Of a stretch of DNA of 64,000 bases, positions 39,158 through 64,000 are shown piece after piece (the stretch's first letter is position 1; every line of letters begins with the position of its first letter). Under the pieces are notes generated by a model. That model was not told the DNA's origin. It did not search any database and saw nothing but the letters and a program-made list of their open reading frames with translations. Made by a program: the position numbers and the translations under genes. The stretch is taken from contig JAHABC010000001.1 in assembly GCA_018376535.1 (NCBI GenBank), forward strand, positions 186,066 through 250,065. The letters run 5' to 3'. Source of the stretch: Ruminococcus sp. (GTDB lineage Bacteria; Bacillota; Clostridia; Oscillospirales; Ruminococcaceae).

Positions 39158-39946
39158 TTAGCGTACTAAAACACTTCTACTAGTCTTTTTATAAAGTAGA
39201 TTATATATATCATTTTTAATAACATCGATATAATAGTCGCCAAGGTCGAATATAAAAAAGTGTTCGCCTGAGTATTCGTACTTAGAGAACTTGCCAGTAG
39301 TTACATCTTTCCAAGCGTCCATCATTTTAAAACTAGCATCGTGGTCTTTAGAACCTGCATACGCTATTATAGGAATACTTAAAACTTCATTATTATAGAT
39401 AAAAGTTTCATTTAGCTTGTAGTCATTCTTGATAAACGGAATTATAATCTTTAATACTTCCTCATTTTCCAAGATTTCTTTAGGAGTACCACCCATAAGT
39501 TTTAGTTCATCTATTAAAGCACTGTCGTCCATATCGGTAGAATATCTATCGCTAAAGTGAATACACGCTGAATGTCTACCAGATACCATCAAGGCTAATG
39601 GCTTATTAGAATAGTTTTGTTCAAGCTCATAAGCAGTTTTGAATGCTACTGCTGAACCCATACTATGTCCATATAATATGTATCTTCTGCCATCTGCAAA
39701 CTCTGAGATAGCTTTAGCAATCATAGAAGATATAGTATCCATATTGAATATGTAATCTTCTGCCATTCTGCAACCCTTTCCAGGTAACTCAATTGGAATG
39801 AATGCTATATGCTCATCATTTTTCTTAGTCCAAGGCATATATACAGATGCTGAACCTCCTGCATGATGAAAACAAAATACCAATATAGTGTCATCATTTA
39901 AAGATATCTTTTTTGAAAATGGAAACCATTTTGTACAATCTGTCAT
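39158..39946 (-). CDS. Type II (editing) thioesterase of the PKS/NRPS cluster
   Basis: It has FCFHHAGGSASVY (the TEII N-terminal motif) and LYGHSMGSAVAF (GxSxG). The start is taken at MTDCTKWFPF, with a GGAAG RBS 17 nt after the megasynthase stop. The tabulated ORF extends to 39994. Confidence 0.8.
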   Translation of the reverse strand: MTDCTKWFPFSKKISLNDDTILVFCFHHAGGSASVYMPWTKKNDEHIAFIPIELPGKGCRMAEDYIFNMDTISSMIAKAISEFADGRRYILYGHSMGSAVAFKTAYELEQNYSNKPLALMVSGRHSACIHFSDRYSTDMDDSALIDELKLMGGTPKEILENEEVLKIIIPFIKNDYKLNETFIYNNEVLSIPIIAYAGSKDHDASFKMMDAWKDVTTGKFSKYEYSGEHFFIFDLGDYYIDVIKNDIYNLLYKKTSRSVLVR

Positions 39947-39962
39947 AAAAGACCACTTCCTT

Positions 39963-42900
39963 TTAAAGTATTTCCCAATTGTCGCTATTGGCAATTGTAT
40001 TTATAAAGTTTATATAATCATTGAACATATTGTCAATAATTTCTGCATCAAAGAGTTCGCTAACGTAGTCCCAAATCAAAACTAGTTCATTATTTCTAAC
40101 CAATGCTTGATGGTCTAACGATACTTGTGGCGTTTGACTTATAGAATATACTTCTTTTACGCTATCAAAGATATCATTTTCATTAGAACTACTTTCAAGA
40201 TTTCCAAAAATCATACTAGTAAATACTACAGGCATAACGGCTTTTAGAATATTATCATCGGAGAAGTGTTTTAATAGTTCCAAACCGTTATAGGTTCTAT
40301 GTTCTATAGCCTCTACAAGATAGTTCTTAGTTGAAGTTAAGCTATCCATAAAAGTAGAATTTTTGCTTTCAAAGTAAGGAATTAATGTAATATTAGTAAA
40401 ATCTCCCAATATGTTCCAAACATCATTGTGTAGAGGTAATCTATTAAATAGCGTTAGATTTAAAGTGAAATCGTGAGTATTACTATACTTAGATAATACA
40501 CTCATATAAGCAGTGCATATAACTGCCGATGCCGTTAAACCATACTTTTTAATCTTCTCATTTAATAGATGTGTCTTATTCTTATCTAATACGAACCTCT
40601 TACGCTTAAAGTGAGGCGTTTCTACTTGTGAGAAATCTACCTTATACTTCAACTCTGGAGCGTTTGGCAAACTTTGAACACTATTTTCCCAATATTCTAT
40701 TGCCTTTTTATGATATTCTTTATCTTCAAGGAATATGCTTTCATTTGTAACGTAATCCTTAAACGATAGTTGTGGCTTTTTGATAGTTCTACCCTCATAG
40801 ACTTCAAATATTTCAGAAATCATCATATTAGCACTCCAACCATCTAAAAGGATACAGTCGAAACTAAAGTGCACTATATAGTTATCATTACCCAAATCAC
40901 TGACAATTATGTCAAACATAGGCCACTTGCCTATTTCGTACTTATGTTCCGACCAAGTACTTCTAACCTGCAAGAGTTCCTCATTAGATACCTTACTAAC
41001 TTTAACCTTGTAGTAAGGCATATTTTCAAGAACTGCTTGAGTTCCGTTGGAAAACACTACCGTTTGAAGAATATCATTGTAACGAATAACCTTATTAATA
41101 GATTTTTCTAACTTAACTAAATCAAGATTATTCCATTCTATTTCGGTGTAGTAGTGAGCACTAGTTCCACCCAATTCATAATAGTTAGAACGTCCTAACA
41201 GATAAGCCTTCTGTAATGGTGTTAGTAAGAATGAATTTTCTTTAAAGTATTCGGCATCATGTTTTTCTTGTTCAGCCTTTACAGTTAGATACTCTATTAA
41301 GGATTGCTTATTAGCTATCAACTCTGCCTTTAACTGAGGTGTCATCTTGCCCTTAGATGCCTTAAACTTTAACTTACCATCTTCAAGATATAGTTCTATT
41401 CCTTGATTAGAATACTTTTCTAATGGATTTTCTTGTAACTCAGTAGTAGTATATACAAAGTTATCATCATCATCTGGTTGAGAGTTATCTTGTTGTTGAA
41501 CAAAGTTATTATTATCGTTAGCGACTTTTCCATCGAAGAAGTTAATAAGTTCACTTACAGACTTATAAGATATCATATCACTTATAGATGGTCTTTCACC
41601 ATATATACTTTCTAACTCATCAGCAAGACGTATCATATCAACGGAAGATACTCCAAAAGCACTAAAACTATCATCTTCAGTAATTTCGGATATATCCAAA
41701 ATTTCTCTAATCTTCTTCAATATAGGATTAACATTCTCATTAGAAGTATTTGACGCTTTACTACTATTCTTTATATCCTCATATATTTGATGTAACTTTT
41801 TCATATCGGATTTGCCATTAGCTGTTACTGGTAAATCTTCTATACAAATAATCTTATCTGGAATAAAGTACTTAGGTAGATACTTACCAAGTTCTTGTTT
41901 TAGTAGTTCTTGGTCTATAGTATCCTTTTGGATTAGAAAAGCAACTATCTTTTTGCGTGAATTTCCAACAGGCATTATAATAGCCTTGCTATCTATACCA
42001 CACTTTTTAATTGCAGATATAATTTCACCTATTTCAATTCTGTAGCCGTTTATCTTTATTTGACCATCTTTTCTACCAAGGAACTCTATAACGCCATCAC
42101 TGATATACTTACCGTAATCGCCAGTATTATATAGTCGTTCGCCAATAGATTTATGTACATAGAAAGCATTTTCAGTTAAAGAAGGTTCATTATAATAACA
42201 TTCTGCAAGACCGTCACCTGCTATGTGAAGTTTTCCTGATACATAGTCTGGACATCTTCTGTTAAAGTCATCTAAGATATAAAATCTTTGGTTTGCTAAA
42301 GGATATCCATATGGAATAGAGTTCCATTCAGGATTTAAAGTATCCACATTAAAGTAGTTAGACCAAATAGATGCCTCTGTTGCACCACCCATGCTAGTAA
42401 GTTCGGCATTAGGAAGTGCTTTATATAGTTTATCCAATAGGTTTAGAGGTATCCAGTCACCCGATAGGATAACTTTTCTTATACTTTCTGAAGTTAAAGA
42501 TTTTTTATTTAAGAAGTCTAAATATAAATCCATAATAGCAGGAACAGTATTCCAAACAGTGACATCGTTGTGTTTAACTAACTGATATTGACTTTTAGGG
42601 TCTATTTTTTCCTGTTCAGTAGGAATAACTATCTTACCACCTACAGATAGCATTCCAAAAACGTCATACACTGATAAGTCAAAACTTAATGAAGATATCG
42701 CTATAGTACTATCATTAGATGTTATATTATACTTTCTAGTTACGTCATCTATGGTGTTCATTGCCGAACCGTGTGCAATGTACACTCCCTTTGGATTTCC
42801 CGTCGAACCAGATGTATATATAATATATGCACCATCACTAGCAGATATTGTCGGTAGATTAGTACCATCACTGCTAGAACTTTCAAAGTCTATGATACTA

Positions 42901-45900
42901 TAGTATGTAATACCCATATCATTGAACTTATTATCACCGATTATAGCCTTTGGTATGGATTTTTCTATGATATTTATAGTCCTATTTTTAGGTTGTTTGT
43001 ATGTAATAGGTACATAAACAGCTCCAGCCTTTAAAATTCCGACTATAGAGTAAATCTGTTCAAAAGATTTTGGAAGTTCTACTAGAACTCTGTCGCCTAT
43101 AGTAACGCCATCTTGTATTAGTTGATTAGCTACCTTATTAGAACACTCATCAAGTTGCCTATATGTATAAGAATTTCCATTGGTTACAACTGCTACGTTA
43201 TTTGGATTTTCTAAGACATTCTTATTAAAGCCAGTAAGTAGAGTAACTGGAGTATACTCAATAGTTGTCATATTAGCCTTATCGTGAGCCTCTACTTGAT
43301 ATGATGGTCTTAAATCTATTAAAGTTTGATTAAAGAACTCTGGATTTTCAATAGCCTTATCTACTAAAGAAGTATATACATCAAACATAGCACTTACGAC
43401 ATTATCCATGAATACGCCATCAAGGGTATCCCAAGATAGAACTATGTCTTTATCCTCATAGAAAATTTGATGGTCTATACAAACTTGTGGTGTAGATGAT
43501 ATCAAACTATTTGAAGATTTTAAGAAGATAGCATCATTGTCTGAGATATCTTTATTTAAATCATCAATACCGATAGCACTAGTAAATACTACAGTATACA
43601 TTCTATCTTCGTTGAAGTGTTTTCTTAACTCACCAACGAACTCTGTAGCAGAGTACTCTGTATGAGATATACTATTCATGATAGTACTTTGAATATCCAA
43701 AGCATTTTTAGATACAGTTGTATCCTTTCTATGAACATCTATTAAAGCTAGTTTAGTGAAGTCACCAATTATCTTTTGAACATCTTTGTTAATATTTTCT
43801 CTGTTGAAAACTGTCATCATTATAGCAAATGAAGAACCTCCTCCAAATGCAGATAACACTTCAGCATACAACGTAAACAACGCAGATGATGGAGTTAATC
43901 CATACTTAGCACAATTTTGAGTAAACTTCTTCCATTGCTTTGGATTGATATTCTTTCTTCTTCTAACGAACTTATGTTTATTATCCACAAATTCCGAACT
44001 CTTAAATGGTAGTTCAGGGGATTTAGGAAAATCTTCTATTTTAGATAACCAATATTTTTTGTCTACATCATGTTTAGCCTTAATATCACTGGAATTATTT
44101 AAGTAGTTAAGATAATCTTTGTAAGTAATAGTTAGAGGTTCTAATATTTCACCATTGTACAACTTGCCCATATCTTTCCAGAAGATATATAAACTCATAG
44201 CATCGGCAATCATGAAGTCTATGGAGAAGTGTATTCTGTAGTTGATATCATCTAACTTAGTTATAGCAACTTTAAACATAGGTTTATCTATAGGTAGAAT
44301 TTCATAAGACATAGTAGTTCTTATGTTATCAAGATGTTTTTGCATATCACTAATAGATTTATAATCATATACCACTACTGTAGAATACTCATCTTTAACA
44401 ATATACTGTTTAGCGTCCTTGTTCATGCGACATCTAAGCATATCGTGACGTTGTTCCAAGCACTTTAGAGTATGTTTAAACTTTTCGATATCTAAGTTAG
44501 GCATATCTAACTCAAAGTAAGTACAACACGCATTATTAGATAACAACATATTCTTATTATCTCTACCAGCCCAGTAAGCATATTGAATATCGTTTAAGTC
44601 GAACATATCGTATCTATGTTGTTCGTCTATTGTAACTTGATTAACTTGCTTATCAGCAGAATTACTTACAGTTAAACCTTTTAACAACTCTTTCCAACCA
44701 GATACAGTACAGTTATTAAAGAAATCATTTAGATTTATTTCAACATTGAAATGTTTTTTAATATCGCCTACTATCTTAACGCCGTTTAAGGAACTCAAAC
44801 CTAAAGTTAGTAGATTAGTATTTTCATCAATATCAGATTTATCAATACCTAAATGATATACTAATAAGTTTACAATATATTCCGATATCTTTTCGTCAGT
44901 AAGTTCCAAACTACTATTAGAAGTTTCTTCAACTTCGTTTATAACTGGAGTTGCATAACTAACCTTTTCATATAGATTGTGTATATAAGGTATCTTTTTA
45001 GTATCAAAAGCGTAGTTAGGAATATCGCAAGTTTGAGCGTTAAAAGATTTATAATAACCTCTCATATTGAAAGGAATAGCATATAAAAACATTGATGATA
45101 AGATTTCAGCAATCTTATAATCAGCAGAAGTATCTTTAGATGCTGAATATATACAATCGGCGTTACCGTTGGATATTCTTCCAATAAGACCACTTAAAAT
45201 AGGCATTGCACCAACTTCTAAGAATAAGTATTCCGATAGGTTTCCTAAATTGAGTACGCTATCTAGGAAACGAACTTCTGAAACTATATGTTGTTTCCAG
45301 TAATCAGCAGTTGTAAATAGAGTCGTTTCTGCCTTAGATGTAACGTTTGAAATAATATTCAACTTTGGCTTTGAATATGTTACTGTCTTAGCCACTTCAA
45401 AGAAGTCATTAGATGCATCTTGCATAAATGGTGTATGGAATGGTCTAGTAGTATTCAAGATAGTATGTTTTATATCTTTAGCATTTAGTATGCCATCTAT
45501 TTCTAAAATAGATTTTTCACTTCCTGCAATGACTGTCTGTTGCTGACTATTCGACAATGATATATATACATCATTATAAGGCTTAATGATATCTTTAATA
45601 CATTCTTTATCGGTGAATATAGCCATCATTTTGCCAAATATAGATTTTTCTTGTATAGCTTTACCTCTTGTAACTACGAGTTTCATGGCATCTTCAAGAG
45701 AGAATACTCCCGATATACAAGCCGAAACGTATTCGCCTATACTATGACCAAATACTATACTTGGATTGATTCCATACTTTTGATACATATACGCTAATGA
45801 ATATTCTACTGAAAATATCGCAGGTTGAGTATATACAGTTTGTGATAAGTCATACTTTTCGGAAAATACTAAATCTATTAGACTACCTCCAGTAAGTTGA

Positions 45901-47651
45901 TTATAATACTTATCACACATATCGAAGGCTTGTTTAAAGTAAGGATTTTTATAAAAATCCTTGCACATATTGTTATATTGTGAGCCTTGACCAGTAAATG
46001 TAAATACAATCTTCTTTTTAGATAGTCCCTTTTGTGTGAATATGTTGCTATCCATTTGACCAGAAATAGCCTTGTTTAATAGACTTTTTAAATCATCAAG
46101 ATTTTTAGCCATAATAAGAGTTCTAACCTCTAATATGGCTCTGGTTACATTTTGCGTATATGATAGATTAGTTAAGTTTATATCTTTGCAAGTTTCAACG
46201 TAAGCTAGGAACTTCTTCATCTGTTCAATAAGAGCGTTCTCAGTTACTGCCGAAAACATAAATGGATATACTGGCATATCTTGAGTAGTAACAGTATCTT
46301 TGTTATACTCCTCAAGAACTATATGAACGTTAGTTCCAGAAAGTCCAAACGAACTAACACCTGCAACCCTATTTTTACCATTAGATTTATTCCAATCCAT
46401 TAAGTTTTGAGCAACCTTAACAGATATAGCGTTCCAATTAACATACTCCGATGGTACGTTATAGTTTATACTTTTAACAATCTTTTTGTGTTCAAGCATA
46501 AGAGCAGTTTTTATCACACTAGCAATACCAGAAGCAGGTTCTAAGTGACCGATACTAGCCTTTAATGAACCTATATATAAAGGTTCGGTTCTATTAGAAC
46601 CTATTACGTTAGATATCGATTTTATTTCAATAGGGTCGCCTAGAGCAGTTCCTGTACCATGAGTTTCAATGTAGTCTATATCGTTAGGAGTAATACCACT
46701 CTTAATCCAAGCAGATTTCAAAAGTTCTTCTTGAGCAAATCCATTAGGTGCAGTTAGACTAGTACTAGCACCATCATGATTAATATAGCTACCCTTGATT
46801 ACACAATGTATACTATCATTATCGGCAGTGGCTTTGGATAGATTTTTCAATAGTATAGCACAACAACCTTCGCCTCTAACAGTACCATTAGCGAACTTAT
46901 CAAAACTTTTTAGTTCGCAAGTTTTGGATAGTATGTTCAATGCGGATAGCTTCTTAGTAGTTTCAGGTGAAAACATTATATTAACACCACAAACTATAGC
47001 CATTTCACAATCGTTATCTCTTAGCGATTTTATAGCTTGATTTATAGCACTCGCTGATGCTGAACAAGCAGTATCTATAGTTAAAGCTGGACCATGAAAA
47101 CCAAAAAAGTAAGATATTCTACCAGATATAAACGATACGTTCATACCAGTAACATCAATATCATGTTCATTTCTAGTTATGTTTTCGTTTAAGAAGTCTG
47201 TTTGAGCGACACCACAAAATACGCCTATTTTTTTACCTTTCAATTCTGTAGGAGAGTATCCTGCATTTTCAAGAACTTCCCAACAAACTTTTAGAACCAT
47301 TCTCTGTTGAGGGTCAATATAAGATGCCTCTTTAGGAGGAATTTTAAACAATCTACTGTCAAATTCTTCAATATCTTCAGTTAAAAAACCTGCCTTTTGC
47401 AAGTATGGATTTTTTAAAAGTTCATCTTTATCATACTCATTCCATCTATTTTCTGGGACGTTTATAATGTCATCTTGACCACTTTCAAGAGATTGCCAAA
47501 AATCTTGAGTATTTTTTATACCATTAGGTAACCTACAAGCCATTCCTATGATGGCTGTAGGTTCATTAGATATAGTTTTTTCTGATAAAAGTTTTTTTAA
47601 TCTTTGAATTTCAAGCAAAGCTTTTTTCATTAAATCTTTATTTTCAGACAT
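39963..47651 (-). CDS. Hybrid PKS-NRPS megasynthase: KS-AT-ACP-Cy-A(Cys)-PCP-Cy
   Basis: KS domain: DTACSAS, HGTGT, GHLEPASG. AT domain: GQGSQ, GHSIGE, and an RPFH malonyl-type motif. ACP: LGLSSL. Cy1: FDLNDIQYAYWAGR and DFMIADAMS (DxxxxDxxS). A domain: YIIYTSGSTGNPKGV, FDLSVYD, GGATEASIWS and LSGDWIP, which are Cys-type signatures. Other A-domain motifs are NTGDYGKY and GRKDGQIKINGYRIEIGEI. PCP: FGVSSVD. Cy2: LTPLQKAYLLGR and DCILLDGWS. A GGAGGT RBS is present. The start abuts the FAAL gene stop. Confidence 0.85.
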   Translation of the reverse strand: MSENKDLMKKALLEIQRLKKLLSEKTISNEPTAIIGMACRLPNGIKNTQDFWQSLESGQDDIINVPENRWNEYDKDELLKNPYLQKAGFLTEDIEEFDSRLFKIPPKEASYIDPQQRMVLKVCWEVLENAGYSPTELKGKKIGVFCGVAQTDFLNENITRNEHDIDVTGMNVSFISGRISYFFGFHGPALTIDTACSASASAINQAIKSLRDNDCEMAIVCGVNIMFSPETTKKLSALNILSKTCELKSFDKFANGTVRGEGCCAILLKNLSKATADNDSIHCVIKGSYINHDGASTSLTAPNGFAQEELLKSAWIKSGITPNDIDYIETHGTGTALGDPIEIKSISNVIGSNRTEPLYIGSLKASIGHLEPASGIASVIKTALMLEHKKIVKSINYNVPSEYVNWNAISVKVAQNLMDWNKSNGKNRVAGVSSFGLSGTNVHIVLEEYNKDTVTTQDMPVYPFMFSAVTENALIEQMKKFLAYVETCKDINLTNLSYTQNVTRAILEVRTLIMAKNLDDLKSLLNKAISGQMDSNIFTQKGLSKKKIVFTFTGQGSQYNNMCKDFYKNPYFKQAFDMCDKYYNQLTGGSLIDLVFSEKYDLSQTVYTQPAIFSVEYSLAYMYQKYGINPSIVFGHSIGEYVSACISGVFSLEDAMKLVVTRGKAIQEKSIFGKMMAIFTDKECIKDIIKPYNDVYISLSNSQQQTVIAGSEKSILEIDGILNAKDIKHTILNTTRPFHTPFMQDASNDFFEVAKTVTYSKPKLNIISNVTSKAETTLFTTADYWKQHIVSEVRFLDSVLNLGNLSEYLFLEVGAMPILSGLIGRISNGNADCIYSASKDTSADYKIAEILSSMFLYAIPFNMRGYYKSFNAQTCDIPNYAFDTKKIPYIHNLYEKVSYATPVINEVEETSNSSLELTDEKISEYIVNLLVYHLGIDKSDIDENTNLLTLGLSSLNGVKIVGDIKKHFNVEINLNDFFNNCTVSGWKELLKGLTVSNSADKQVNQVTIDEQHRYDMFDLNDIQYAYWAGRDNKNMLLSNNACCTYFELDMPNLDIEKFKHTLKCLEQRHDMLRCRMNKDAKQYIVKDEYSTVVVYDYKSISDMQKHLDNIRTTMSYEILPIDKPMFKVAITKLDDINYRIHFSIDFMIADAMSLYIFWKDMGKLYNGEILEPLTITYKDYLNYLNNSSDIKAKHDVDKKYWLSKIEDFPKSPELPFKSSEFVDNKHKFVRRRKNINPKQWKKFTQNCAKYGLTPSSALFTLYAEVLSAFGGGSSFAIMMTVFNRENINKDVQKIIGDFTKLALIDVHRKDTTVSKNALDIQSTIMNSISHTEYSATEFVGELRKHFNEDRMYTVVFTSAIGIDDLNKDISDNDAIFLKSSNSLISSTPQVCIDHQIFYEDKDIVLSWDTLDGVFMDNVVSAMFDVYTSLVDKAIENPEFFNQTLIDLRPSYQVEAHDKANMTTIEYTPVTLLTGFNKNVLENPNNVAVVTNGNSYTYRQLDECSNKVANQLIQDGVTIGDRVLVELPKSFEQIYSIVGILKAGAVYVPITYKQPKNRTINIIEKSIPKAIIGDNKFNDMGITYYSIIDFESSSSDGTNLPTISASDGAYIIYTSGSTGNPKGVYIAHGSAMNTIDDVTRKYNITSNDSTIAISSLSFDLSVYDVFGMLSVGGKIVIPTEQEKIDPKSQYQLVKHNDVTVWNTVPAIMDLYLDFLNKKSLTSESIRKVILSGDWIPLNLLDKLYKALPNAELTSMGGATEASIWSNYFNVDTLNPEWNSIPYGYPLANQRFYILDDFNRRCPDYVSGKLHIAGDGLAECYYNEPSLTENAFYVHKSIGERLYNTGDYGKYISDGVIEFLGRKDGQIKINGYRIEIGEIISAIKKCGIDSKAIIMPVGNSRKKIVAFLIQKDTIDQELLKQELGKYLPKYFIPDKIICIEDLPVTANGKSDMKKLHQIYEDIKNSSKASNTSNENVNPILKKIREILDISEITEDDSFSAFGVSSVDMIRLADELESIYGERPSISDMISYKSVSELINFFDGKVANDNNNFVQQQDNSQPDDDDNFVYTTTELQENPLEKYSNQGIELYLEDGKLKFKASKGKMTPQLKAELIANKQSLIEYLTVKAEQEKHDAEYFKENSFLLTPLQKAYLLGRSNYYELGGTSAHYYTEIEWNNLDLVKLEKSINKVIRYNDILQTVVFSNGTQAVLENMPYYKVKVSKVSNEELLQVRSTWSEHKYEIGKWPMFDIIVSDLGNDNYIVHFSFDCILLDGWSANMMISEIFEVYEGRTIKKPQLSFKDYVTNESIFLEDKEYHKKAIEYWENSVQSLPNAPELKYKVDFSQVETPHFKRKRFVLDKNKTHLLNEKIKKYGLTASAVICTAYMSVLSKYSNTHDFTLNLTLFNRLPLHNDVWNILGDFTNITLIPYFESKNSTFMDSLTSTKNYLVEAIEHRTYNGLELLKHFSDDNILKAVMPVVFTSMIFGNLESSSNENDIFDSVKEVYSISQTPQVSLDHQALVRNNELVLIWDYVSELFDAEIIDNMFNDYINFINTIANSDNWEIL

Positions 47652-47653
47652 AA

Positions 47654-49772: not shown

Positions 49773-49790
49773 AGTTAGCTAGTGCTAACT
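49773..49790. promoter_or_regulatory. Operator-like palindrome AGTTAGC-tagt-GCTAACT abutting the FAAL RBS
   Basis: A perfect 7-4-7 inverted repeat 17 bp upstream of the FAAL start codon. It is one of five related copies in the cluster. Coordinates are accurate to about 2 nt. Confidence 0.5.
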
Positions 49791-49838
49791 TTTTCACAAA
49801 AAAAATTAAGTTAAAATATTTAAATCGGTTTAATTTCA

Positions 49839-49855
49839 GTTAGCAACTGCTAACC
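49839..49855. promoter_or_regulatory. Operator-like palindrome AGTTAGC-aact-GCTAACC (distal FAAL site)
   Basis: 7-4-7 inverted repeat with one mismatch, 66 bp upstream of the first copy. Confidence 0.45.
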
Positions 49856-54629: not shown

Positions 54630-54651
54630 TCTACACAATAATAGATGCTTT

Positions 54652-54690
54652 AAAATCCCCTATCATAAAATATAGGGGATTTACTTATAT
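54652..54690 (+). terminator. Terminator of the ATPase-FtsX operon
   Basis: The sequence is aaaatcccctat-cataaaa-tataggggattt followed by a T-rich tract. Confidence 0.6.
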
Positions 54691-54708
54691 TTAAACTTAT
54701 ATATAAAG

Positions 54709-54745
54709 AAATAACTCCAATATAATTACTGGAGTTATTTCTATA
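54709..54745 (-). terminator. Terminator of the convergent ABC half-transporter operon
   Basis: The sequence is aataactcca-atataattac-tggagttatt. The minus-strand transcript has a T-rich tail. Confidence 0.5.
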
Positions 54746-54773
54746 GTTTCAACGTTATATTTTATGTGATGTA

Positions 54774-56540: not shown

Positions 56541-56549
56541 ATTAAATTA

Positions 56550-58322
56550 CTACTCCTTTCCCGATACAGATACAGCCCAATCTTTAGCACCAATATGAGC
56601 CTTCCACATTTGAGCGTATAATGGACACTTTTCAAGTAACTCTTGTTGTGTACCTTGAGATAGTATACTACCATCTTTAAGAACCACAATATTATCGGCA
56701 TTACTAATAGTTGAAAGTCTATGTGCAATAACTAATAAAGTCTTACCCTTAGTAAGTGCAGATATACTTTCTTGTATCTTATCTTCATTTTCTGGGTCAG
56801 TAAAGGCAGTAGCCTCATCTAGTATAACTATCGGAGCGTTTTTCAACATCATTCTAGCTATGGCAATACGTTGTTTTTCTCCTCCAGATAGACGCTTACC
56901 AGCCTCACCAGCAGGAGTATTATAACCATCAGGAAGTTTATTAATAAAGTCCTCACATTGAGCCAACTTAGCTACTCTATACACTTCCTCATCAGATGCC
57001 TTAGGATTTCCTAAACGTATATTTTCCAAAATAGAACATCTAAATAAGAAGTTATCTTGAGTAACGAAACTTACAGTATCTGCTAGTTGAGAAATAGGAA
57101 TGTTTTTGATATCCACGTCACCTATCTTTATAGTACCACCAGTAGTATCCCAAAATCTAGCGATTAGCTTTGCTACTGTAGATTTTCCTCCACCAGATGG
57201 ACCTACTAACGCTGTAAAACTACCTTGAGGTAGATTTAAACTTATATTATGTAATACATTATCTTTAGCGTCGCCACTATAAGAGAAAGTTACACTGTCT
57301 AATTTAACATCGTAGCCGTTTAACTTTGCAGATGTATTTGGTTCTGGTAATGATGGCATTTCTAAATACTCTTGTAGTTCATCTACGGTAAATTGAACTT
57401 GTCTTAAACTTTCTGAGAAAACTTCCAACTTTGCCAAAGAACCTATCATTGACATGGATAACATTACTCCTAAGGCTACTTGTGCTATTGAGATACTTCC
57501 GTTAGTACATAGATACAAACCCATCGGTAGAGTTCCTAAAAGTGTAGATGGAAATAGTGCAAAAGTCAACTTCATAGTAAACCATGTGGATTGCAACCAC
57601 TTAACTACAAATGTACGATAATCTGTAATAGCCTTTGCATACTTTTCATAAGATACTCCTGCTCTACCAAATGCTTTTATAACCTCAATACCTTCAATAT
57701 ATTCTACAATAGTACTGTTCATGTAGGCAGTTGCCTCGTTGTACTTATCGAAGTTTTGACCACTTATTTTGAAGGTAAGTCCCATGCACACTATCGATAG
57801 TGGCAAAGTAACTAACGATGCCAATGCAATCTTCCAATCTATAGTGCATAACAAGATAAAACTTATTATTGGTAATATAATATGTCCAGAACCCTCTGGA
57901 ACAAAGTGTGCTATTGGAGGTTCTATATTATCAATCTTATCGACAATAATGCCTTTTATCTCACCAATAGAATGTGATGTTACTTTTCCTAAAGGTGCGT
58001 GTAGAAATCTATCTACTACACGAAGTCTTAACTTTTCCAAGATTGTAAACGCCGCAGTATGTGAAATTCCTGTAGATAATCCAAATAATACCACTTTCAC
58101 CACATAACCTATTAAGCCTATCAATCCCCAAAAGATTATATCTTTACTAGATATACTACTTTCAGTATACTTTTCTATAATCTTGTATATAGAAAAGTAT
58201 GGTACCATTCCAGATAGTATACTAACTATAGATAGTATTACTGAAATCACTAAATCTTTTTTACTTTCACTAGCATAACTCATCAACACGTTAAACCAAG
58301 ATTTCTTTTCTTGTTTTTCCAA
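56550..58322 (-). CDS. ABC half-transporter (TMD-NBD fusion), subunit A of a heterodimer
   Basis: 590 aa. Six TM segments are followed by GPSGGGKST, LSGGEKQR and ILDEATAFTD. The downstream partner follows after a 9-nt gap. Confidence 0.85.
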   Translation of the reverse strand: MEKQEKKSWFNVLMSYASESKKDLVISVILSIVSILSGMVPYFSIYKIIEKYTESSISSKDIIFWGLIGLIGYVVKVVLFGLSTGISHTAAFTILEKLRLRVVDRFLHAPLGKVTSHSIGEIKGIIVDKIDNIEPPIAHFVPEGSGHIILPIISFILLCTIDWKIALASLVTLPLSIVCMGLTFKISGQNFDKYNEATAYMNSTIVEYIEGIEVIKAFGRAGVSYEKYAKAITDYRTFVVKWLQSTWFTMKLTFALFPSTLLGTLPMGLYLCTNGSISIAQVALGVMLSMSMIGSLAKLEVFSESLRQVQFTVDELQEYLEMPSLPEPNTSAKLNGYDVKLDSVTFSYSGDAKDNVLHNISLNLPQGSFTALVGPSGGGKSTVAKLIARFWDTTGGTIKIGDVDIKNIPISQLADTVSFVTQDNFLFRCSILENIRLGNPKASDEEVYRVAKLAQCEDFINKLPDGYNTPAGEAGKRLSGGEKQRIAIARMMLKNAPIVILDEATAFTDPENEDKIQESISALTKGKTLLVIAHRLSTISNADNIVVLKDGSILSQGTQQELLEKCPLYAQMWKAHIGAKDWAVSVSGKE

Positions 58323-58384
58323 TTTAAAAATGCTCCTTTCAAGATAATATATTTATTATAATATAAAAATATTATACACTACCA

Positions 58385-59773
58385 TTAAAATATTTTAGTC
58401 AAGGTTAGAACCTTATCGCAAGTTAAGTTCATGAACTCTCTATCGTGGGATACTATTATTATAATATGTCCCTCACTAGCGAGTTTTTTTACTATCTTAC
58501 AGACTTCAATCATGTGTTTATAATCCAAGCCACTGGTAGGCTCATCAAATATAAGAACTCTTTTTTTAGATAGCAATGCTAAAGCAATAGCTAACCTTTG
58601 TTTTTGCCCACCAGATAAAGCCATTGGGTGACTTTCTTTAAAAGGTAACAAATCGCATTGAGATAGAATATCATCAATGTTAATATTTTCGTCATCAACA
58701 GATTGCAAACATTCATTTTCAACGCTATCGTAAAAAAGTTGATGGTTTACATCTTGCATTACACAAAAACTTACTTTCTGTCGATTTTTATGATTAAGTA
58801 CAACACTATCTAAAGTAATAGTTCCAGATTTTTGTTTTATAAGTCCACATAGACAGCGTATCAAAGTAGATTTACCTGAGCCATTCTGTCCAGTGATTGC
58901 TAAAACTTCTCCTTGATTGACACTAAAAGAGATATCTTTTAAAATAGTAGCATCTTTTTTGTAGCCATAACAAAGATTTTCCACCTTAAAACTTTGATTA
59001 CTATTAAATGTCGCTTTTGGAATGTTTAAACTTTCATATAGTAAGGTACGCAATCCAAGACTAATTCTGTAGTCATTAGATATCTTTTTAAAACTTTCGC
59101 CCGAATACTCCGAAACGATTTTACCATCTTTTAGATATATAACTCTATCAACCAAATCCATTAAGAAGTATAATCTATGTTCAGCAATTATGATAGTATT
59201 TCCATTACTTTTTAAGAACTCTATCTGTTTTCTTAAATTTTCTATAGCTTTTTCATCTAAGTTAGCAGTAGGTTCGTCTAAGACGTAGATATCTGGGTTC
59301 ATAGTATATATACTTGCAAAAGCGATGGTTTGCTTTTCACCTCCGGACAGTGAAAAGATATTCTTATCTATTAGATGCTTTATGTTTAAACTCTTGATAG
59401 TTCTATCTAAGCGATAGTTTATATCTATTGGTGATACCCCCGCATTTTCTAAACCAAAGACTATCTCATCGGTAGTATTTAGATTAAAAAACTGGCTCTT
59501 AGGATTTTGAAACACTGAACCTACTTTTTTAGAAATTTCATACAGTTCAGTATTAGCGACTACCATATCTTCAATATATACTTTACCATCTAAAAAGCAA
59601 TCGTTAATAAAGTGAGGAATAAGTCCATTGATAGTCTTAGTTATAGTAGTCTTTCCACAACCACTTGCACCACATAACAGAACACATTCACCACTTTTAA
59701 TATTAAGGTCTATATTATATAAATCCATGCGATTTTTATTGTAACCAAAAGATAGATTATCTATTTTAATCAT
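58385..59773 (-). CDS. ECF-transporter energising ATPase, fused duplicated EcfA-EcfA' type
   Basis: 462 aa with two complete NBDs (GASGCGKTT...LSGGEKQ...VLDEPTANLD and GQNGSGKST...LSGGQKQR...IFDEPTSGLD). Confidence 0.8.
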   Translation of the reverse strand: MIKIDNLSFGYNKNRMDLYNIDLNIKSGECVLLCGASGCGKTTITKTINGLIPHFINDCFLDGKVYIEDMVVANTELYEISKKVGSVFQNPKSQFFNLNTTDEIVFGLENAGVSPIDINYRLDRTIKSLNIKHLIDKNIFSLSGGEKQTIAFASIYTMNPDIYVLDEPTANLDEKAIENLRKQIEFLKSNGNTIIIAEHRLYFLMDLVDRVIYLKDGKIVSEYSGESFKKISNDYRISLGLRTLLYESLNIPKATFNSNQSFKVENLCYGYKKDATILKDISFSVNQGEVLAITGQNGSGKSTLIRCLCGLIKQKSGTITLDSVVLNHKNRQKVSFCVMQDVNHQLFYDSVENECLQSVDDENINIDDILSQCDLLPFKESHPMALSGGQKQRLAIALALLSKKRVLIFDEPTSGLDYKHMIEVCKIVKKLASEGHIIIIVSHDREFMNLTCDKVLTLTKIF

Positions 59774-59788
59774 ATATAAATAACTCCT

Positions 59789-60475
59789 TTACTTAAAAAA
59801 AATCAAAGCCATGATAAAAATAACTGCAAAAATTGAGATAATAATATCATATGGCTTAATTTTTAATTGGGTTATGGTCGTCTTAGGTGCAGGATTTTCT
59901 ATACCTCTAGTGACTGCTGCTGAAGATAGTTCCTCAGAAGTTTCTATAGCAGATACCATTAAAGGTACAATATAAGCCTCTACCTTTTTTATTCCGTGAA
60001 TGTTTCTAAGACGCATAGCATCTTTAATGTAACTAGCCTCCTCACGAATAGCTGGGAAGTATCTAATAGTTACGGTAATTGGAATAATAATCTTTTGAGA
60101 TATATGTAGCTTTCTTAAAGCCTCAGTGAACTGTTTAAGCGATACCGTCTTTATAATAAGATTTCCTACCATTAAACACGGAAAAACTTTTCTAGCATAA
60201 GTCACTATAAGAGAAAAACTCATTGATATAGCTTTGGGAGCGTATACTACTATGTACTTCTGTAATAGCAACATTATGACAAAAAACAGCAACCACTTTA
60301 TCCCAGATTTTTTAACTCCACTTATAAAATACAATATACCCACAAAAAGTATATATCCTACTTCAAGATATATACTACTTTGAGCAAATGCTATAATATT
60401 AGATGTTATTAATAATAAAAGTTGTATTCTAGGGTCTATAAGCAGTTTAGATTTATTTTGTTCTAAAGTATTCAT
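59789..60475 (-). CDS. ecfT: ECF transporter T (transmembrane coupling) component, EcfT/CbiQ family
   Basis: 228 aa with five TM segments and the conserved C-terminal Ala-Arg-Gly-like coupling region (AAVTRGIENP). Confidence 0.7.
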   Translation of the reverse strand: MNTLEQNKSKLLIDPRIQLLLLITSNIIAFAQSSIYLEVGYILFVGILYFISGVKKSGIKWLLFFVIMLLLQKYIVVYAPKAISMSFSLIVTYARKVFPCLMVGNLIIKTVSLKQFTEALRKLHISQKIIIPITVTIRYFPAIREEASYIKDAMRLRNIHGIKKVEAYIVPLMVSAIETSEELSSAAVTRGIENPAPKTTITQLKIKPYDIIISIFAVIFIMALIFFK

Positions 60476-60477
60476 AA

Positions 60478-61074
60478 TTATAACATACCAGCCTTCTTGA
60501 AGTGTTTATTAAACATTGCTTTAGTTATAAACAATCCTATAATAGAACATATTATTGGTGCTACAAATAGAACTATCAACATTGGTGTAGATGAAAAACC
60601 TTCTAAGGTTGCAATATAGTCAGCAGACATACCTTGTTCCTTTAGTTGGTTAAAAAAGCTATCGTGTATTAGCCATACTGGAAGTGGTGAACCTACCATT
60701 CCTAATGAAAATAATACAAATGATACAGCATTTCCTTTAAAAGTATTGTATTTAAACAGATATCTAACTAATTCAGCCAAAAGACAACTTATCAAGAAAC
60801 TTACAAGAATTATTACAGTAAACTGTCCAGTAACGAAGTATATCAAGCCAGTAATAAAGCCCATTATTAGAACTGCTCCAAACTTTTGAACCTTTGTACA
60901 CATCAACATATATGGAATACCTGATAATAATGATATAAGTGCAGGAAGTAGTATCCAAACTATAGGGTGCAAACCACTTAATATCATAAATATGAAGTTT
61001 ATTACAAAGTATATAGCCGAAAATATACCTATTGTAATTAAATCTTTGCCTTTTAGAGTTTTATTATTATCCAT
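60478..61074 (-). CDS. Putative ECF-transporter substrate-specific (S) component, a small 6-TM membrane protein
   Basis: 198 aa and highly hydrophobic. It lies immediately upstream of EcfT with a 2-nt gap, in the standard S-T-A gene order of a dedicated ECF module. An AGGAGG RBS is present. Confidence 0.55.
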   Translation of the reverse strand: MDNNKTLKGKDLITIGIFSAIYFVINFIFMILSGLHPIVWILLPALISLLSGIPYMLMCTKVQKFGAVLIMGFITGLIYFVTGQFTVIILVSFLISCLLAELVRYLFKYNTFKGNAVSFVLFSLGMVGSPLPVWLIHDSFFNQLKEQGMSADYIATLEGFSSTPMLIVLFVAPIICSIIGLFITKAMFNKHFKKAGML

Positions 61075-61115
61075 AAAATAGCCTCCTAAGAATATTATAC
61101 AATAAACACTCTAAA

Positions 61116-61132
61116 GGTTAGCAGAGCTAACC
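61116..61132. promoter_or_regulatory. Palindrome GGTTAGC-aga-GCTAACC (same half-site as the FAAL/ABC operators, with a 3-nt spacer) between the NRPS stop and the ECF S gene
   Basis: The extended form AAGGTTAGCAGAGCTAACCTT is a perfect 9-3-9 inverted repeat, about 45 bp upstream of the S-component start. It could alternatively act as a weak terminator hairpin for the NRPS gene. Confidence 0.45.
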
Positions 61133-61155
61133 TTTTAGAATATCTATTATTTGGA

Positions 61156-64000
61156 TTAAAATTGTTCTATTAATTCAGCCAATTTCTTAGCATTAGTAGG
61201 GTCTTCAACACAAGAATAGTGGTTTCCATCAGCATAAAAGACCTCAAAATCTCCTAAGCAGATATCTCGCCAGAACTCCATACTTCTTTCGTTGCTATAG
61301 AATGAGTTATACGATTCTTTAGCATTAACATAACGAACATCGCCAACGTAAGCATCAATATCCGATGTTATACAGTGTGTAGTTTGAGCAAATATCTCAA
61401 AGTAGCTTTTTAAGATATCTGGAGATATCTTTTCATTAGATTTTTTATTAACAATATCGGCATACTTTTGGAAACGCTCATCTTTAGACATTGTTGAAAG
61501 TTTTTCTAATGGAACGCTCATATAAGATAGTTCACTATCAGATTTAATCTTATCAAGAACATCTTCTGGAATACAACCGAACTTTTCAGTTATCTTCATA
61601 AAGTCGAAAGTATCGCCTACTATACCCAACTCATTGAAATCCACATTAAAGTTAGGCATGAACATCAATTCCATGAATAGTTCGTTGTTAATCTTCCAAG
61701 GAATAGTTTGAGCATCTATTAGAACCATATCCACGATTTCAACATCTGCCTCTTGAAGTCTGTTAGCAGTTTGAGTGGATAACCAAGCACCAAAAGAATG
61801 TCCAATCAATTGAACTTGTTTGTAACCAGTTTCTAATATCAACTTAGCATAGTCATCAACTAGAGTTTGTAAGCAAGTATCCTTATTCAATTGACAATAC
61901 TGTTTAATATCTCTAATGGATATAGTCATAACCTTACCTTTATTTTGATGTATCATTTCAGTTATCAAGTTAGACATATTGTTTACAGTACCCAATCCCG
62001 AATGGAACACCACTCTAAGAGGGCCATCACCAGCATCATAGAACTTAACTTCTCCAATACTGTTATTAGAACTATTATCATTAGAAGTATCTTGTACACA
62101 AGATTTATCTTCTATAAATCTTGATAGTTCAATAATAGTAGGGTGATTTAATATAAATCTAAGTAACTCATCAAAAGGAATGTTTTTAGCAATACTTTCT
62201 CTAAGTTTACCAGTTATTTGAGCCATTATTAAAGAGTCTGCACCATATTCAAATAGATTATCATTTAATTGAATACCTCTAATACCAGTATTTTCACATA
62301 TCGAAAGAATTTCTTTTTGAAGTTCTGTATAGTTTTGATTATCTACACTTACAGACTTAACACTTACACTATTAGATATCTTATTTTTAGCAAGTTCAAG
62401 TAACTGTTTTCTATCTATTTTGCTATTAGCAGTTATAGGTAGATTGTCTAACATTGAAAAACTAGAAGGCATCATGTAAGTTGGAAGATACTCTTTAATA
62501 TAGTCTTTAAGTTCGGAACTTTCAAGATTATACTTGTTAGTCTTGAACTGTTTTATAAATAGTTCCAAGCCGAAACTCTTTAAAGGACTATCATTTTTAG
62601 GGAATACTACAGTAGATGCGTTATTATCTACAATATTTAAAGCGTTCAACCAATCATTAGAGTCTAAAAAGGCTTTATTCTGTCTTAAAGAGTCCTCTGG
62701 TTTGGTCATCAAGAAACCTTGAGAAGCTAATATCCAAACTTCTTCCTTAACTGGTTCGGTGAATAAGAAGAATCCATTAGGTTTAATCAACTTTTTGATG
62801 TTGTTCAAACTATTTAAGATATCTTTAGCATTTTCTAATACACCTACTGCTATGATTATATCATAAGAGTTATCAGAAAAACCTTGTGCATATATATCTT
62901 CATCAATGTTAAGTGGATATACACTTACTCGATTATTATTTTCAAACTTCTTTTTAGCGTTAGGAATAAAGAACTTATTAATATCTGTAACATGATAAGT
63001 ATAGTTGCTATCACCAAGAGTTCTCATAACCTGTTCCGATGTTGCACAAGTACCAGCACCAACTTCAAGGATATTAACTTTTCTATCTTGTGATTTAACA
63101 AATCTATTAACAAACTCGCAAATGCAGATGTTTAAATATTTAGACATCTTATTATTTACATACATATCCAATACTATATCATTTTTACCATCTGGATATA
63201 ATAGTTTAATAGGGTCTTCTTGTTTGCATAGTAGCTTGTTCAATCTAGTGGAACTCTTATATAGGTAGTCATAGAATATATCTGCACCCATCTCCGATAG
63301 CCAATTAGATTTTAAATCTGCCCATAGAGAGTTAATATCTTCCATAGATACGTTACTATACTTAGCATTAATCTTGTAAGAGTCGTTACTTTTGGTTATA
63401 TAATTGTTATTAACTAATAGTTTAACCCAATATTCAACTAACCATTTATATTGATTATCAATTGAACCACACTCTAAGAGTTGTTGCATAGTAAACTCAT
63501 CACTATTGATACAATTCTTAATTGCAAAAATCATAGATTGCATAATAGCATTATCTTTAACTAATACGGCATCATCAAGCACTTTTTTAGTTAGATGGTT
63601 CATAGTCAATTCTGCGTTTGCATTAAGATTTTCATACAATCTTTCAGACTTTTCTAAAATTGAACTTCTTTCTTCTTTAGAATTAACCTTAGTTTCGTAG
63701 TAGCACAATAAAGATTTTTCATCATTACTTTCATAGTATACAACGGCACTATTTTCAACCTTAGGATTTTCGTCTATAGCGTGTTCAATTTCGCCCAACT
63801 CTATACGATGTCCATTAAGTTTTATTTGATGGTCTGCTCTACCTAAAAATTCAATTTCGCCATTAGAATGATATTTTCCTAAATCACCAGTTTTGTACAT
63901 CATTTCGCCAGTAGATTTATCTTTAATAAATTGAGCGTTAGTCTTTTCGATATCGTTGTAATATCCAGTAGCTAGACCCTTACCCAAGATATATATTTCA
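61156..64000 (-). CDS. NRPS terminal module, 5'-truncated at the window edge: ...A(with embedded methyltransferase)-PCP-TE (PchF-like)
   Basis: The frame is open to the window end (EIYILGKGLATGYY, the A6 motif). The tabulated M is an internal TTG. A-domain motifs are YKTGDLGKY (A7) and GRADHQIKLNGHRIELGEIE (A8). An approximately 400-aa insert with the SAM motif ILEVGAGTCATS follows, then NLPITANSKIDRKQL (A10). The PCP reads FEYGADSL. The TE has GHSFGAW (GxSxG). Confidence 0.85.
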   Translation of the reverse strand, partial: EIYILGKGLATGYYNDIEKTNAQFIKDKSTGEMMYKTGDLGKYHSNGEIEFLGRADHQIKLNGHRIELGEIEHAIDENPKVENSAVVYYESNDEKSLLCYYETKVNSKEERSSILEKSERLYENLNANAELTMNHLTKKVLDDAVLVKDNAIMQSMIFAIKNCINSDEFTMQQLLECGSIDNQYKWLVEYWVKLLVNNNYITKSNDSYKINAKYSNVSMEDINSLWADLKSNWLSEMGADIFYDYLYKSSTRLNKLLCKQEDPIKLLYPDGKNDIVLDMYVNNKMSKYLNICICEFVNRFVKSQDRKVNILEVGAGTCATSEQVMRTLGDSNYTYHVTDINKFFIPNAKKKFENNNRVSVYPLNIDEDIYAQGFSDNSYDIIIAVGVLENAKDILNSLNNIKKLIKPNGFFLFTEPVKEEVWILASQGFLMTKPEDSLRQNKAFLDSNDWLNALNIVDNNASTVVFPKNDSPLKSFGLELFIKQFKTNKYNLESSELKDYIKEYLPTYMMPSSFSMLDNLPITANSKIDRKQLLELAKNKISNSVSVKSVSVDNQNYTELQKEILSICENTGIRGIQLNDNLFEYGADSLIMAQITGKLRESIAKNIPFDELLRFILNHPTIIELSRFIEDKSCVQDTSNDNSSNNSIGEVKFYDAGDGPLRVVFHSGLGTVNNMSNLITEMIHQNKGKVMTISIRDIKQYCQLNKDTCLQTLVDDYAKLILETGYKQVQLIGHSFGAWLSTQTANRLQEADVEIVDMVLIDAQTIPWKINNELFMELMFMPNFNVDFNELGIVGDTFDFMKITEKFGCIPEDVLDKIKSDSELSYMSVPLEKLSTMSKDERFQKYADIVNKKSNEKISPDILKSYFEIFAQTTHCITSDIDAYVGDVRYVNAKESYNSFYSNERSMEFWRDICLGDFEVFYADGNHYSCVEDPTNAKKLAELIEQF

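Follow-up and report, generated by a model that had tools for sequence, protein, structure and literature searches.

We analyzed a stretch of 64,000 nucleotides from Ruminococcus sp. (assembly GCA_018376535.1, contig JAHABC010000001.1, positions 186,066 to 250,065), hereafter called the window, whose last part, from position 39158 onward, holds a biosynthetic gene cluster combining a fatty acyl-AMP ligase (FAAL), a polyketide synthase (PKS) module, nonribosomal peptide synthetase (NRPS) modules, and three transport systems. An earlier reading of the letters alone (the original prediction) had described a lipid-started thiazoline pathway of about 25 kb that runs beyond position 64000. We found 11 uninterrupted open reading frames (ORFs) in 39158-64000, arranged as three blocks with intergenic gaps of -32 to +80 nt within each block, and all the genes and domains listed in that prediction were present in these intact ORFs (Pfam, ORF list). 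Six human-gut contigs, two of them from Hadza and Nepal samples, overlap the window end and extend it at 99.0-99.5% identity, confirming that the cluster continues. Its actual size is about 32.6 kb, from 39158 to about 71.8 kb in window-equivalent coordinates, 7.6 kb past the window end. We put at roughly 0.6 the probability that the locus is a complete, metal-regulated pathway that starts with a fatty acid, makes a thiazoline/thiazolidine metallophore akin to yersiniabactin, equibactin, and micacocidin, and is maintained by selection as an island.

The first minus-strand operon encodes a FAAL fused to an acyl carrier protein (ACP), a hybrid PKS-NRPS, and a type II thioesterase (TE II) whose probable start is ATG 39946. 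In the FAAL-ACP protein Pfam recognized AMP-binding, a DIP2-like C-terminal domain, and PP-binding, and the closest solved structures of the ligase are all FAALs (7r7f, 3kxw, FadD23, FadD32, 3pbk, and FadD28; E 1e-81 to 1e-43). Its C-terminal tail is acidic (LSEDDIADLLNQEL) and faces the N-terminal coiled coil of the PKS protein. The ketosynthase (KS) of the hybrid keeps the Cys-His-His residues, and the acyltransferase (AT) motif GHSIG...RPFH reads as malonyl-type. Pfam found no ketoreductase (KR), dehydratase (DH), or enoylreductase (ER) in the hybrid, and their absence also follows from the spacing of only about 100 residues between AT and ACP. Hence the proposed replacement of salicylate loading by a FAAL and a KR-less PKS module is borne out by the Pfam domains and the structural relatives of the FAAL, and the editing thioesterase is present as well. 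The hybrid ends in a heterocyclization (Cy) domain, Cy2, with no carrier after it, as in all orthologues with sequence examined. Between the first peptidyl carrier protein domain (PCP1) and Cy2 it has an internal TubC_N docking domain, with an acidic low-complexity linker ahead of it. Docking domains of this type normally stand at the N terminus of proteins, and the internal one looks like the result of a gene fusion that retained the dock.

The single malonyl extension of the original prediction is an assumption. The KS-AT-ACP module might instead act iteratively and add several malonates, after which the chain would cyclize to an alkyl-resorcylate-type cap and the product would be an aryl-thiazoline siderophore with a phenolate ligand. 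The FAAL-ACP and the string KS-AT-ACP-Cy-A-PCP-Cy (A, adenylation domain) are indeed collinear with a 4231-aa protein of Ralstonia solanacearum (L099), which we take to have the MicC architecture of micacocidin synthesis, its record not being labelled mic; the identities are 29% for FAAL, 32% for KS-AT, and 36% for Cy-A. The micacocidin PKS is reportedly iterative and makes 6-pentylsalicylate. Micacocidin is the one characterized pathway with this domain order and uses a FAAL fused to its PKS (PMC11837247), and a phenolate would match the known chemistry of the whole family. We nevertheless regard iteration as unlikely: the synthase has no KR, DH/TH-like, or product-template domain, about 100-127 aa separate AT from Cy1, and KS-AT is no closer to the MicC-type protein than to ordinary modular PKSs, with which it shares 31-37% identity. 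Where no cyclase is present, a poly-beta-keto chain that stays unreduced also tends to leave as a pyrone.

Cy1 and Cy2 have the cores DFMIADAMS and DCILLDGWS, both of the form DxxxxDxxS, and HHxxxDG occurs nowhere. For both, the best eight PDB matches are all heterocyclization domains (HMWP2, EpoB, BmdB, Irp2, PchE, and FmoA3; E 1e-32 to 1e-75, the best of them 1e-53 to 1e-75), whereas ordinary condensation domains matched at E 1e-10 to 1e-19 or weaker, 30-60 orders of magnitude below. Motifs and nearest solved relatives thus agree with the class first assigned to these domains. The Cy6 Thr (VFTS) and Cy7 Asp (TPQVxxD), which are said to have roles in cyclodehydration according to a study of BmdB, are retained in all three Cy domains of the cluster. 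We read the codes of the A domains from our own motif anchors (FDxS, the GGxTE motif, and the A10 Lys) as DLYNISMIWK in A1, DLFNLSLIWK in the free-standing A* described below, and DLYNLSLIWK in the terminal A3. All three are Cys-type, as had been proposed for the A domain.

The remainder of the assembly line straddles the window end. In full length the terminal NRPS has 1805 aa and the order TubC_N dock-Cy3-A3(MT)-PCP-TE (L001 4502-9919; MT, methyltransferase; TE, thioesterase), with the dock, Cy3, and the rest of A3 outside the window. The MT predicted inside this A domain was confirmed by Pfam and by a canonical S-adenosylmethionine (SAM) motif, ILEVGAGTC; the TE motif is GHSFG. Three genes precede the terminal NRPS, encoding a thiazolinyl imide reductase (235 bits with TIGR01761, whose cut-off is 189), an EqbM-like protein of 364 aa of the saccharopine dehydrogenase (SDH) family (PF03435, E 7.5e-11) for which we found no solved structural relative, and a 950-aa free-standing A*-PCP; the reductase and SDH-family genes lie just past the window (L001 2297-4481). 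The A domain of A*-PCP holds a degenerate MT-like insert with no canonical SAM motif, and its acidic C terminus, EMEDIEEGEL, suits a TubC_N docking domain. It is the only carrier without a condensation domain of its own, and Cy2 and Cy3 are each preceded by one of the two TubC_N docks of the cluster. When the genes past the window are included, Cy domains, Cys-coded A domains, and PCPs each number three, which points to a tris-heterocycle instead of the bis-heterocycle proposed at first.

Table 1. Features of the cluster, in window coordinates except for the last row.
Feature	Position	Strand	Remarks
Type II (editing) thioesterase	39158-39946	-	Final gene of operon; Pfam Thioesterase E 2.2e-36; GHSMG serine motif
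Hybrid PKS-NRPS	39963-47651	-	2562 aa; KS-AT-ACP-Cy-A-PCP-[TubC_N]-Cy (Pfam)
Hybrid, C-terminal Cy2	39978-41237	-	
Hybrid, internal TubC_N docking domain	41286-41423	-	
Hybrid, PCP1	41502-41699	-	
Hybrid, A1 (Cys)	41727-43226	-	
Hybrid, Cy1	43314-44621	-	
Hybrid, ACP	44682-44906	-	
Hybrid, AT	45195-46007	-	
Hybrid, KS	46059-47564	-	
Hybrid, N-terminal docking helix	47568-47651	-	
FAAL-ACP	47654-49756	-	700 aa; first gene of operon; FAAL 48023-49699, ACP 47711-47962
Operator-like palindrome AGTTAGCTAGTGCTAACT	49773-49790		Before FAAL operon
Operator-like palindrome AGTTAGCAACTGCTAACC	49838-49855		Before FAAL operon
Operator-like palindrome AGTTAGCCAATACTAACT	50154-50171		Before ABC ATPase gene
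Operator-like palindrome AGTTAGCTAAAGCTAACT	50221-50238		Abuts GGAGG ribosome-binding site of ABC ATPase gene
MacB/LolD-type ABC ATPase	50256-50954	+	232 aa from TTG 50256; Pfam ABC_tran
Giant FtsX/MacB-family permease	50970-54629	+	1219 aa; Pfam FtsX twice, MacB_PCD
Terminator-like hairpin	54653-54682	+	Ends plus-strand unit; convergent with next
Terminator-like hairpin	54707-54742	-	Ends long minus-strand unit
Fused TMD-NBD ABC gene	54774-56540	-	588 aa; Pfam ABC_membrane, ABC_tran
Fused TMD-NBD ABC gene	56550-58322	-	590 aa; Pfam ABC_membrane, ABC_tran
ECF AA' (fused A-A' ATPase)	58385-59773	-	
ECF T	59789-60475	-	Pfam CbiQ
ECF S	60478-61074	-	Pfam Trep_Strep E 1.6e-60
Terminal NRPS, C-terminal part	61156->64000	-	947 of 1805 aa; part of A3, MT, A3 C-terminal subdomain, PCP3, TE
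Terminal NRPS, TE	61159-61950	-	
Terminal NRPS, PCP3	62113-62301	-	
Terminal NRPS, A3 C-terminal subdomain	62368-62700	-	
Terminal NRPS, embedded MT	62728-63165	-	
Two operator-like palindromes	L087 9164-9181, 9267-9284		Before A*-PCP operon, outside window
TMD, transmembrane domain; NBD, nucleotide-binding domain; ECF, energy-coupling factor.

The palindrome AGTTAGC-N4-GCTAACT occurs six times ahead of the operons, two copies before each of the three and 65-103 bp apart, with the proximal box beside the ribosome-binding site in two of the three. Within the window, five matches with at most two mismatches were observed against 0.34 expected. A seventh intact GTTAG-N6-CTAAC core, AGTTAGGCATATCTAACT at 44495-44512, falls within the gene of the hybrid synthase, close to where ACP and Cy1 meet, and could be an internal operator or a chance match (expectation per window about 0.07). 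Electrophoretic mobility shift assays (EMSA) with EqbA, the DtxR-like repressor of the equibactin cluster, showed that a 36-bp eqbB operator is required for Fe2+/Zn2+/Mn2+-dependent binding, and the core of our boxes is identical to the centre of this EMSA-proven operator (PMC3672683). The same core lies upstream of feoA-feoA-feoB in a metagenome-assembled genome (MAG) of a related member of the Oscillospiraceae (L018, 4399) and, in the orthologous clusters of three Ruminococcus-type relatives (L089, L093, and L094; 50-56% protein identity), ahead of an SDH or ECF gene. L018 has a second box, GTTAGTTAAAGCTAAC, just before a DUF2325 gene that adjoins feoAB (3941-4258), and the DUF2325 protein may be part of the same metal regulon.

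We rejected an RNA hairpin as an explanation of the palindromes: the arm sequences are conserved, and the few changes found in them do not restore pairing, which favours a site recognized in the DNA. Rfam had no match anywhere in the window, and we therefore see no riboswitch involved. The CIRCE, Fur, Zur, PerR, LexA, and classical DtxR/IdeR boxes differ from the palindrome in half-site or spacing.

Among the transport genes, ECF S belongs to the MptD family (TIGR02185, 137 bits against a cut-off of 76), which takes its name from the zinc-responsive mpt/sid island discussed below, and the two fused ABC genes form the heterodimeric exporter-fold pair that had been proposed, resembling YbtPQ (33% identity to YbtP, E 1e-98). 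The plus-strand ABC ATPase matches the LolD, DevA, and MacB-like models of NCBIfam, all under their curated cut-offs; it starts at TTG 50256 and not at 50217 as first called, and gene callers also give 232 aa. Its partner permease, annotated at NCBI as hypothetical only, has an ectodomain of about 650 aa with abundant coiled coil and xxxLxxG heptad repeats (TIGR03057). The MacB/FtsX pair is missing in every orthologous cluster examined yet has two operator boxes of its own, and so was apparently drawn into the regulon in the source species.

Three transport systems, one of them MacB-like, are also typical of self-resistance. The cluster might accordingly make a bioactive lipopeptide that is no metallophore (an antibiotic, toxin, or signal, such as the curacin-like alkyl-thiazolines or the bilothiazoles), with the transporters serving export and self-protection and the palindromes binding an unrelated regulator. 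It has no gene for biosynthesis of a salicylate or dihydroxybenzoate chelator, and a related cluster of the gut bacterium Bilophila makes antibacterial arylthiazoles (PMC11934131). We hold this explanation to be quite improbable, because the operator core is that of the metal-dependent EqbA and is found upstream of feoAB in a relative, and because ECF transporters import, the equivalent eqbHIJ being needed for iron uptake (PMC3672683). It is further disfavoured by the zinc response of the related mpt/sid island of Mycobacterium avium subsp. paratuberculosis (PMC4298942) and by the homology of the reductase, TE II, and ABC pair to YbtU, YbtT, and YbtPQ.

Proteins homologous to the hybrid synthase over its full length, and identical to it in domain string, occur in Ruminococcus MAGs (48-56% identity), and others in Clostridium estertheticum (44%), Paenibacillus arenosi (43%), and Cohnella, Pelosinus, Sporomusa, and Aquimarina (42-44%). 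All five neighbourhoods examined (L089, L091-L094) have the SDH-like gene, terminal NRPS, FAAL-ACP, and TE II; the ECF module is present in all but Pelosinus (within the stretch read), and a Pfam-recognizable reductase in all but L093. In C. estertheticum (L091 387-2657), Pelosinus (L092 1069-3339), and Clostridium butyricum (L095 6992-9286) reductase and SAM methyltransferase form a single protein of 756-764 aa, a fusion that couples reduction with methylation, as in pyochelin PchG/PchF; in the source species the MT sits inside the last A domain and is not fused to the reductase. On the 820-kb megaplasmid pNPD4_2 of C. butyricum CDC_51208 there is a complete orthologous cluster (NZ_CP013238.1, 362-402 kb), in which every biosynthetic, ECF, and ABC component, including the A*(MT-like)-PCP, is orthologous at 30-52% identity. 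Its hybrid (2608 aa) is 44% identical to ours over the full length, and the figures are 43% for TE II, 47-52% for the ABC pair, and 48-52% for the ECF genes, which are annotated alike. It differs in having all genes in one direction, a phosphopantetheinyl transferase (PPTase), an AraC regulator, a MATE pump, and the reductase-methyltransferase fusion, and in lacking the MacB/FtsX pair.

Housekeeping genes (Smr-like, DUF4358, DUF4230, TsaD, RimI-like, and PolA) lie upstream of the cluster genes outside the window, and the gene of a GTP-dependent phosphoenolpyruvate carboxykinase (PEPCK) flanks the other end. Because PolA-GNAT-TsaD directly adjoin PEPCK at a cluster-free junction in the relative L016, we consider the cluster an island; the PEPCK neighbourhoods of 80 relatives hold it in no case. 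Scanned against species-representative genomes, the A*-PCP protein gave no match, and PEPCK matched only relatives with at most 86% identity. Its G+C content of 0.30-0.35 is no different from that of the flanks, and its borders show no tRNA, integrase, conjugation gene, or flanking repeat. Public assemblies contain the identical ECF S protein in 432 indexed blocks. Seven genes (window 50970-63987) are intact in six strains of the source species, with 47-86 synonymous versus 18-33 nonsynonymous codon differences, about 2.5:1.

These figures bear on whether the island still works. A silent or incomplete remnant, which has lost its PPTase and local regulator, was rearranged, received a foreign MacB/FtsX insertion, and makes no product, would explain a gene order that departs from those of C. 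butyricum and the Ruminococcus relatives, as well as the absence of the PPTase and of a gene of about 350 aa. In one relative the FAAL-ACP gene is moreover called as two ORFs (204 + 488 aa; L089 23081-25180), which may be a frameshift or pseudogene in that lineage. We give this explanation very little weight, as all 11 window genes are intact, the compared genes are intact in six independent human-gut assemblies and show a synonymous excess, and the operators are retained ahead of each of the three units. Encoding of the PPTase apart from the cluster is common, for example ybtD (PMC3672683).

Elsewhere in the window, the PEPCK gene is preceded by a perfect (12/12) sigma-70-like promoter, TTGACA-17-TATAAT, within 38992-39141, and a 33-nt imperfect inverted repeat lies at 39075-39141, just 3' of the TE II gene. 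What looks like a large locus for glycan uptake lies at 3086-14324, an operon that encodes four ABC permeases together with a solute-binding protein of 972 aa, a DUF5696 protein of 783 aa, a protein with NHL repeats, and a Yip1 membrane protein. The gene at 22476-23675 codes for a protein that combines BspA-type leucine-rich repeats with a type I dockerin. The label 'cellulosomal' given to the host by the original prediction has limited support, with one dockerin protein only among the window ORFs of at least 150 aa.

For a metallophore pathway we propose the following course. The FAAL would adenylate a fatty acid and load its own ACP, and KS-AT-ACP would add one malonate without reduction to give a beta-keto, enolizable acyl chain. 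Cy1, A1, and PCP1 would add and cyclize the first cysteine. Cy2 would then work in trans on A*-PCP, which would take the chain at Cy2 and pass it on at Cy3; we propose this shuttle because A*-PCP is the sole carrier without a condensation domain, has an acidic tail, and is matched by two TubC_N docks. The dock-Cy3-A3(MT)-PCP3-TE protein would add the third cysteine, and its TE would hydrolyze the product. One or two rings would be reduced by the thiazolinyl imide reductase, possibly also by the EqbM-like oxidoreductase, and the embedded MT would methylate. The predicted product is an acyl-beta-keto tris-thiazoline(-idine) carboxylate, in which the enol oxygen beside the first ring nitrogen would replace the salicyl hydroxyl as metal ligand. 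It may well function as a metallophore, as homology, the operator, and the presence of an ECF importer indirectly suggest. Export would use the ABC pair, the MacB/FtsX pump, or both, and the MptD-type ECF transporter would re-import the metal complex. An EqbA-like (DtxR-family) metal-dependent repressor encoded elsewhere would repress all three operons, each through two GTTAG-N6-CTAAC operators. The analysis itself shows the gene content, domain classes, motifs, orthology, and the operator copies with their conservation; the order of action and the directions of transport are what we infer. The main uncertainty is chemical and concerns a single or iterative round of the PKS, the choice of rings for reduction, and the identity of the metal.

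Several observations weigh against this course or against metal regulation of the cluster. We know of no tested precedent for a beta-keto donor for a Cy domain or for an enol as metal ligand. The Cy3 core, EFIIADWTS, has Glu for the first Asp (ExxxxDxxS), a change kept in four orthologues; across the family members inspected (L001 4502-9919, L089, L091, and L092) the motif takes the form EF[IL]IADW[TA]S. We found neither a regulator of the DtxR family nor a PPTase in the cluster or, among ORFs of at least 150 aa, in the 64-kb window, and the relatives do carry a PPTase gene. Also missing here is an extra gene of about 320-355 aa that three Ruminococcus-type relatives have between TE II/PPTase and A*-PCP (L089 19134-20102, L093 18571-19638, and L094 19103-20155), for which the only family assignment is a faint DUF7411 (PP-loop-like) match in L094. 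The box is not present in the orthologous cluster of C. butyricum, which has the AraC gene instead. Finally, the best-scoring promoter-like sites put the boxes in the transcribed leader and not over the promoter. For the FAAL operon the site has its -35 element at 49953 and a -10 element ending at 49925, and the 49773 and 49838 boxes lie between it and the FAAL start codon. Promoter-like matches are overall no commoner than chance, and we take the leader placement as weak evidence either way.

To our knowledge, siderophore-type systems are held to be rare in strict anaerobes, and none has been characterized for commensal Oscillospiraceae. If the product is a metal carrier, it bears on the competition for iron and zinc of fibre-degrading gut bacteria with each other, with yersiniabactin-using pathogens, and with the host; a beta-keto/enol in place of the salicyl cap would, if true, widen the ligand set of thiazoline metallophores. 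We advance only tentatively, and with more doubt than confidence, the broader idea that a prevalent, strictly anaerobic member of the human-gut Oscillospiraceae and scattered anaerobes including C. butyricum make an unseen metallophore class of enol-liganded acyl-beta-keto/enol tris-thiazoline(-idine) carboxylates, with a shuttling A-PCP, ECF re-import, and an EqbA-type metalloregulon shared with feoAB. A culturable test organism is at hand in C. butyricum with its megaplasmid-borne orthologous cluster, and the defined 18-bp operator and the MptD-type ECF importer family also make the question testable.

Among characterized systems, the equibactin cluster (eqbA-N) on ICESe2 of Streptococcus equi has the same order reductase-NRPS-ECF S-T-AA'-ABC-ABC, as eqbF-G-H-I-J-K-L, a likeness drawn from the published gene descriptions and order. 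The eqbF gene encodes a reductase, eqbG a PchF-like NRPS, and eqbKL fused ABC proteins 28-30% identical to YbtPQ, and a type II thioesterase is present; eqbHIJ form an ECF-type importer needed for 55Fe accumulation in S. equi, and eqbM, of the saccharopine dehydrogenase family, is essential for equibactin production (PMC3672683). Equibactin also shares the Firmicute host, the Cy-domain NRPS, Cys activation, the EqbM-type protein, TE II, and the operator core with the cluster described here. It is started by a salicylate-AMP ligase and an aryl carrier protein, whereas we found neither between PEPCK and the housekeeping flank, their place being taken by the FAAL-ACP and the PKS module. Equibactin has one A domain and our cluster three, with Cy2 predicted to act on a separate A-PCP protein. 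The cluster also has no EqbA gene, PPTase, or EqbN hydrolase and no recognizable integrative and conjugative element, and it has the extra MacB/FtsX pair.

The MicC-type protein of R. solanacearum has, by Pfam, the string FAAL-ACP-KS-AT-KR-ACP-Cy-A(MT)-PCP-Cy-PCP; a thiazolinyl imide reductase follows it, and a YbtPQ-like ABC pair lies nearby. It differs from our synthase in its KR and second ACP, in the AT-Cy1 gap (about 590 aa versus 127 aa here), in the fusion of FAAL to the PKS, in the MT-like insert of its A domain, and in a PCP that follows Cy2 in cis. Micacocidin is taken up by a TonB receptor, where the cluster here has an ECF transporter.

The pyochelin- and yersiniabactin-like logic of assembly proposed at the outset is supported by the domains, the reductase, and the YbtU, YbtT, YbtP, and YbtQ homologies, which we established against the annotated ybt locus on a Salmonella plasmid. 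Like the yersiniabactin system, the cluster is predicted to form three rings from cysteine, and it has one reductase, an editing thioesterase, and a heterodimeric ABC pair of exporter fold. The reductase is 28% identical to YbtU (E 5e-26), TE II 27% to YbtT (E 1e-28), and the 590-aa ABC protein 33% to YbtP (E 1e-98); for YbtQ, identity reaches 31% with the 590-aa protein (565 aa aligned) and 45% with the NBD of the 588-aa protein. A*-PCP is collinear with the interrupted A-PCP of HMWP2 (31% over 832 aa). Two Klebsiella plasmid matches considered as yersiniabactin were rejected as an unrelated NRPS/PKS locus. Yersiniabactin differs in its salicylate starter, one A domain that loads all three PCPs, a mid-chain PKS with KR and C-methyltransferase (C-MT), an AraC regulator (YbtA), and an outer-membrane receptor; the cluster has no YbtS/YbtE, no mid-chain PKS with KR and C-MT, and no TonB-dependent receptor. 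The arrangement Cy-A(MT)-PCP-TE plus reductase is that of PchF/PchG in pyochelin, which gives an N-methyl-thiazolidine, and PchE is among the best solved relatives of the Cy domains; pyochelin has two rings where three are expected here, a salicylate starter, and no PKS. The mptABC/mptDEF and sid island (LSP14) of M. avium subsp. paratuberculosis, compared by description, likewise sets an MptD-family ECF S beside an IrtAB/YbtPQ-like ABC system and a siderophore-like NRPS, but it is actinobacterial and under Zur (zinc) regulation (PMC4298942).

The original prediction went too far in stating that pathways like this one were undescribed in such organisms. We found no cluster identical to a characterized one, and our literature search, incomplete in coverage, found no characterized FAAL-primed thiazoline product from Clostridia, nor does a 2025 FAAL review list one. 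Equibactin-type clusters that share the reductase, ECF importer, and ABC pair have, however, been published for S. equi, Clostridium kluyveri, and transposon 023_CTn1 of C. difficile RT023 (PMC3672683, PMC6814731), and micacocidin is a known yersiniabactin-like pathway primed by a FAAL and a PKS. Orphan orthologous clusters are already public in C. butyricum, C. estertheticum, and Pelosinus, as are synthase homologues in Paenibacillus and Aquimarina. The kind of pathway is thus familiar from equibactin, micacocidin, and yersiniabactin. New here are a FAAL/PKS starter that lacks a KR, a separate A*-PCP carrier served by two docking/Cy stations, a set of EqbA-type operators with no regulator gene beside them, and the host, an anaerobic gut commensal that is prevalent.

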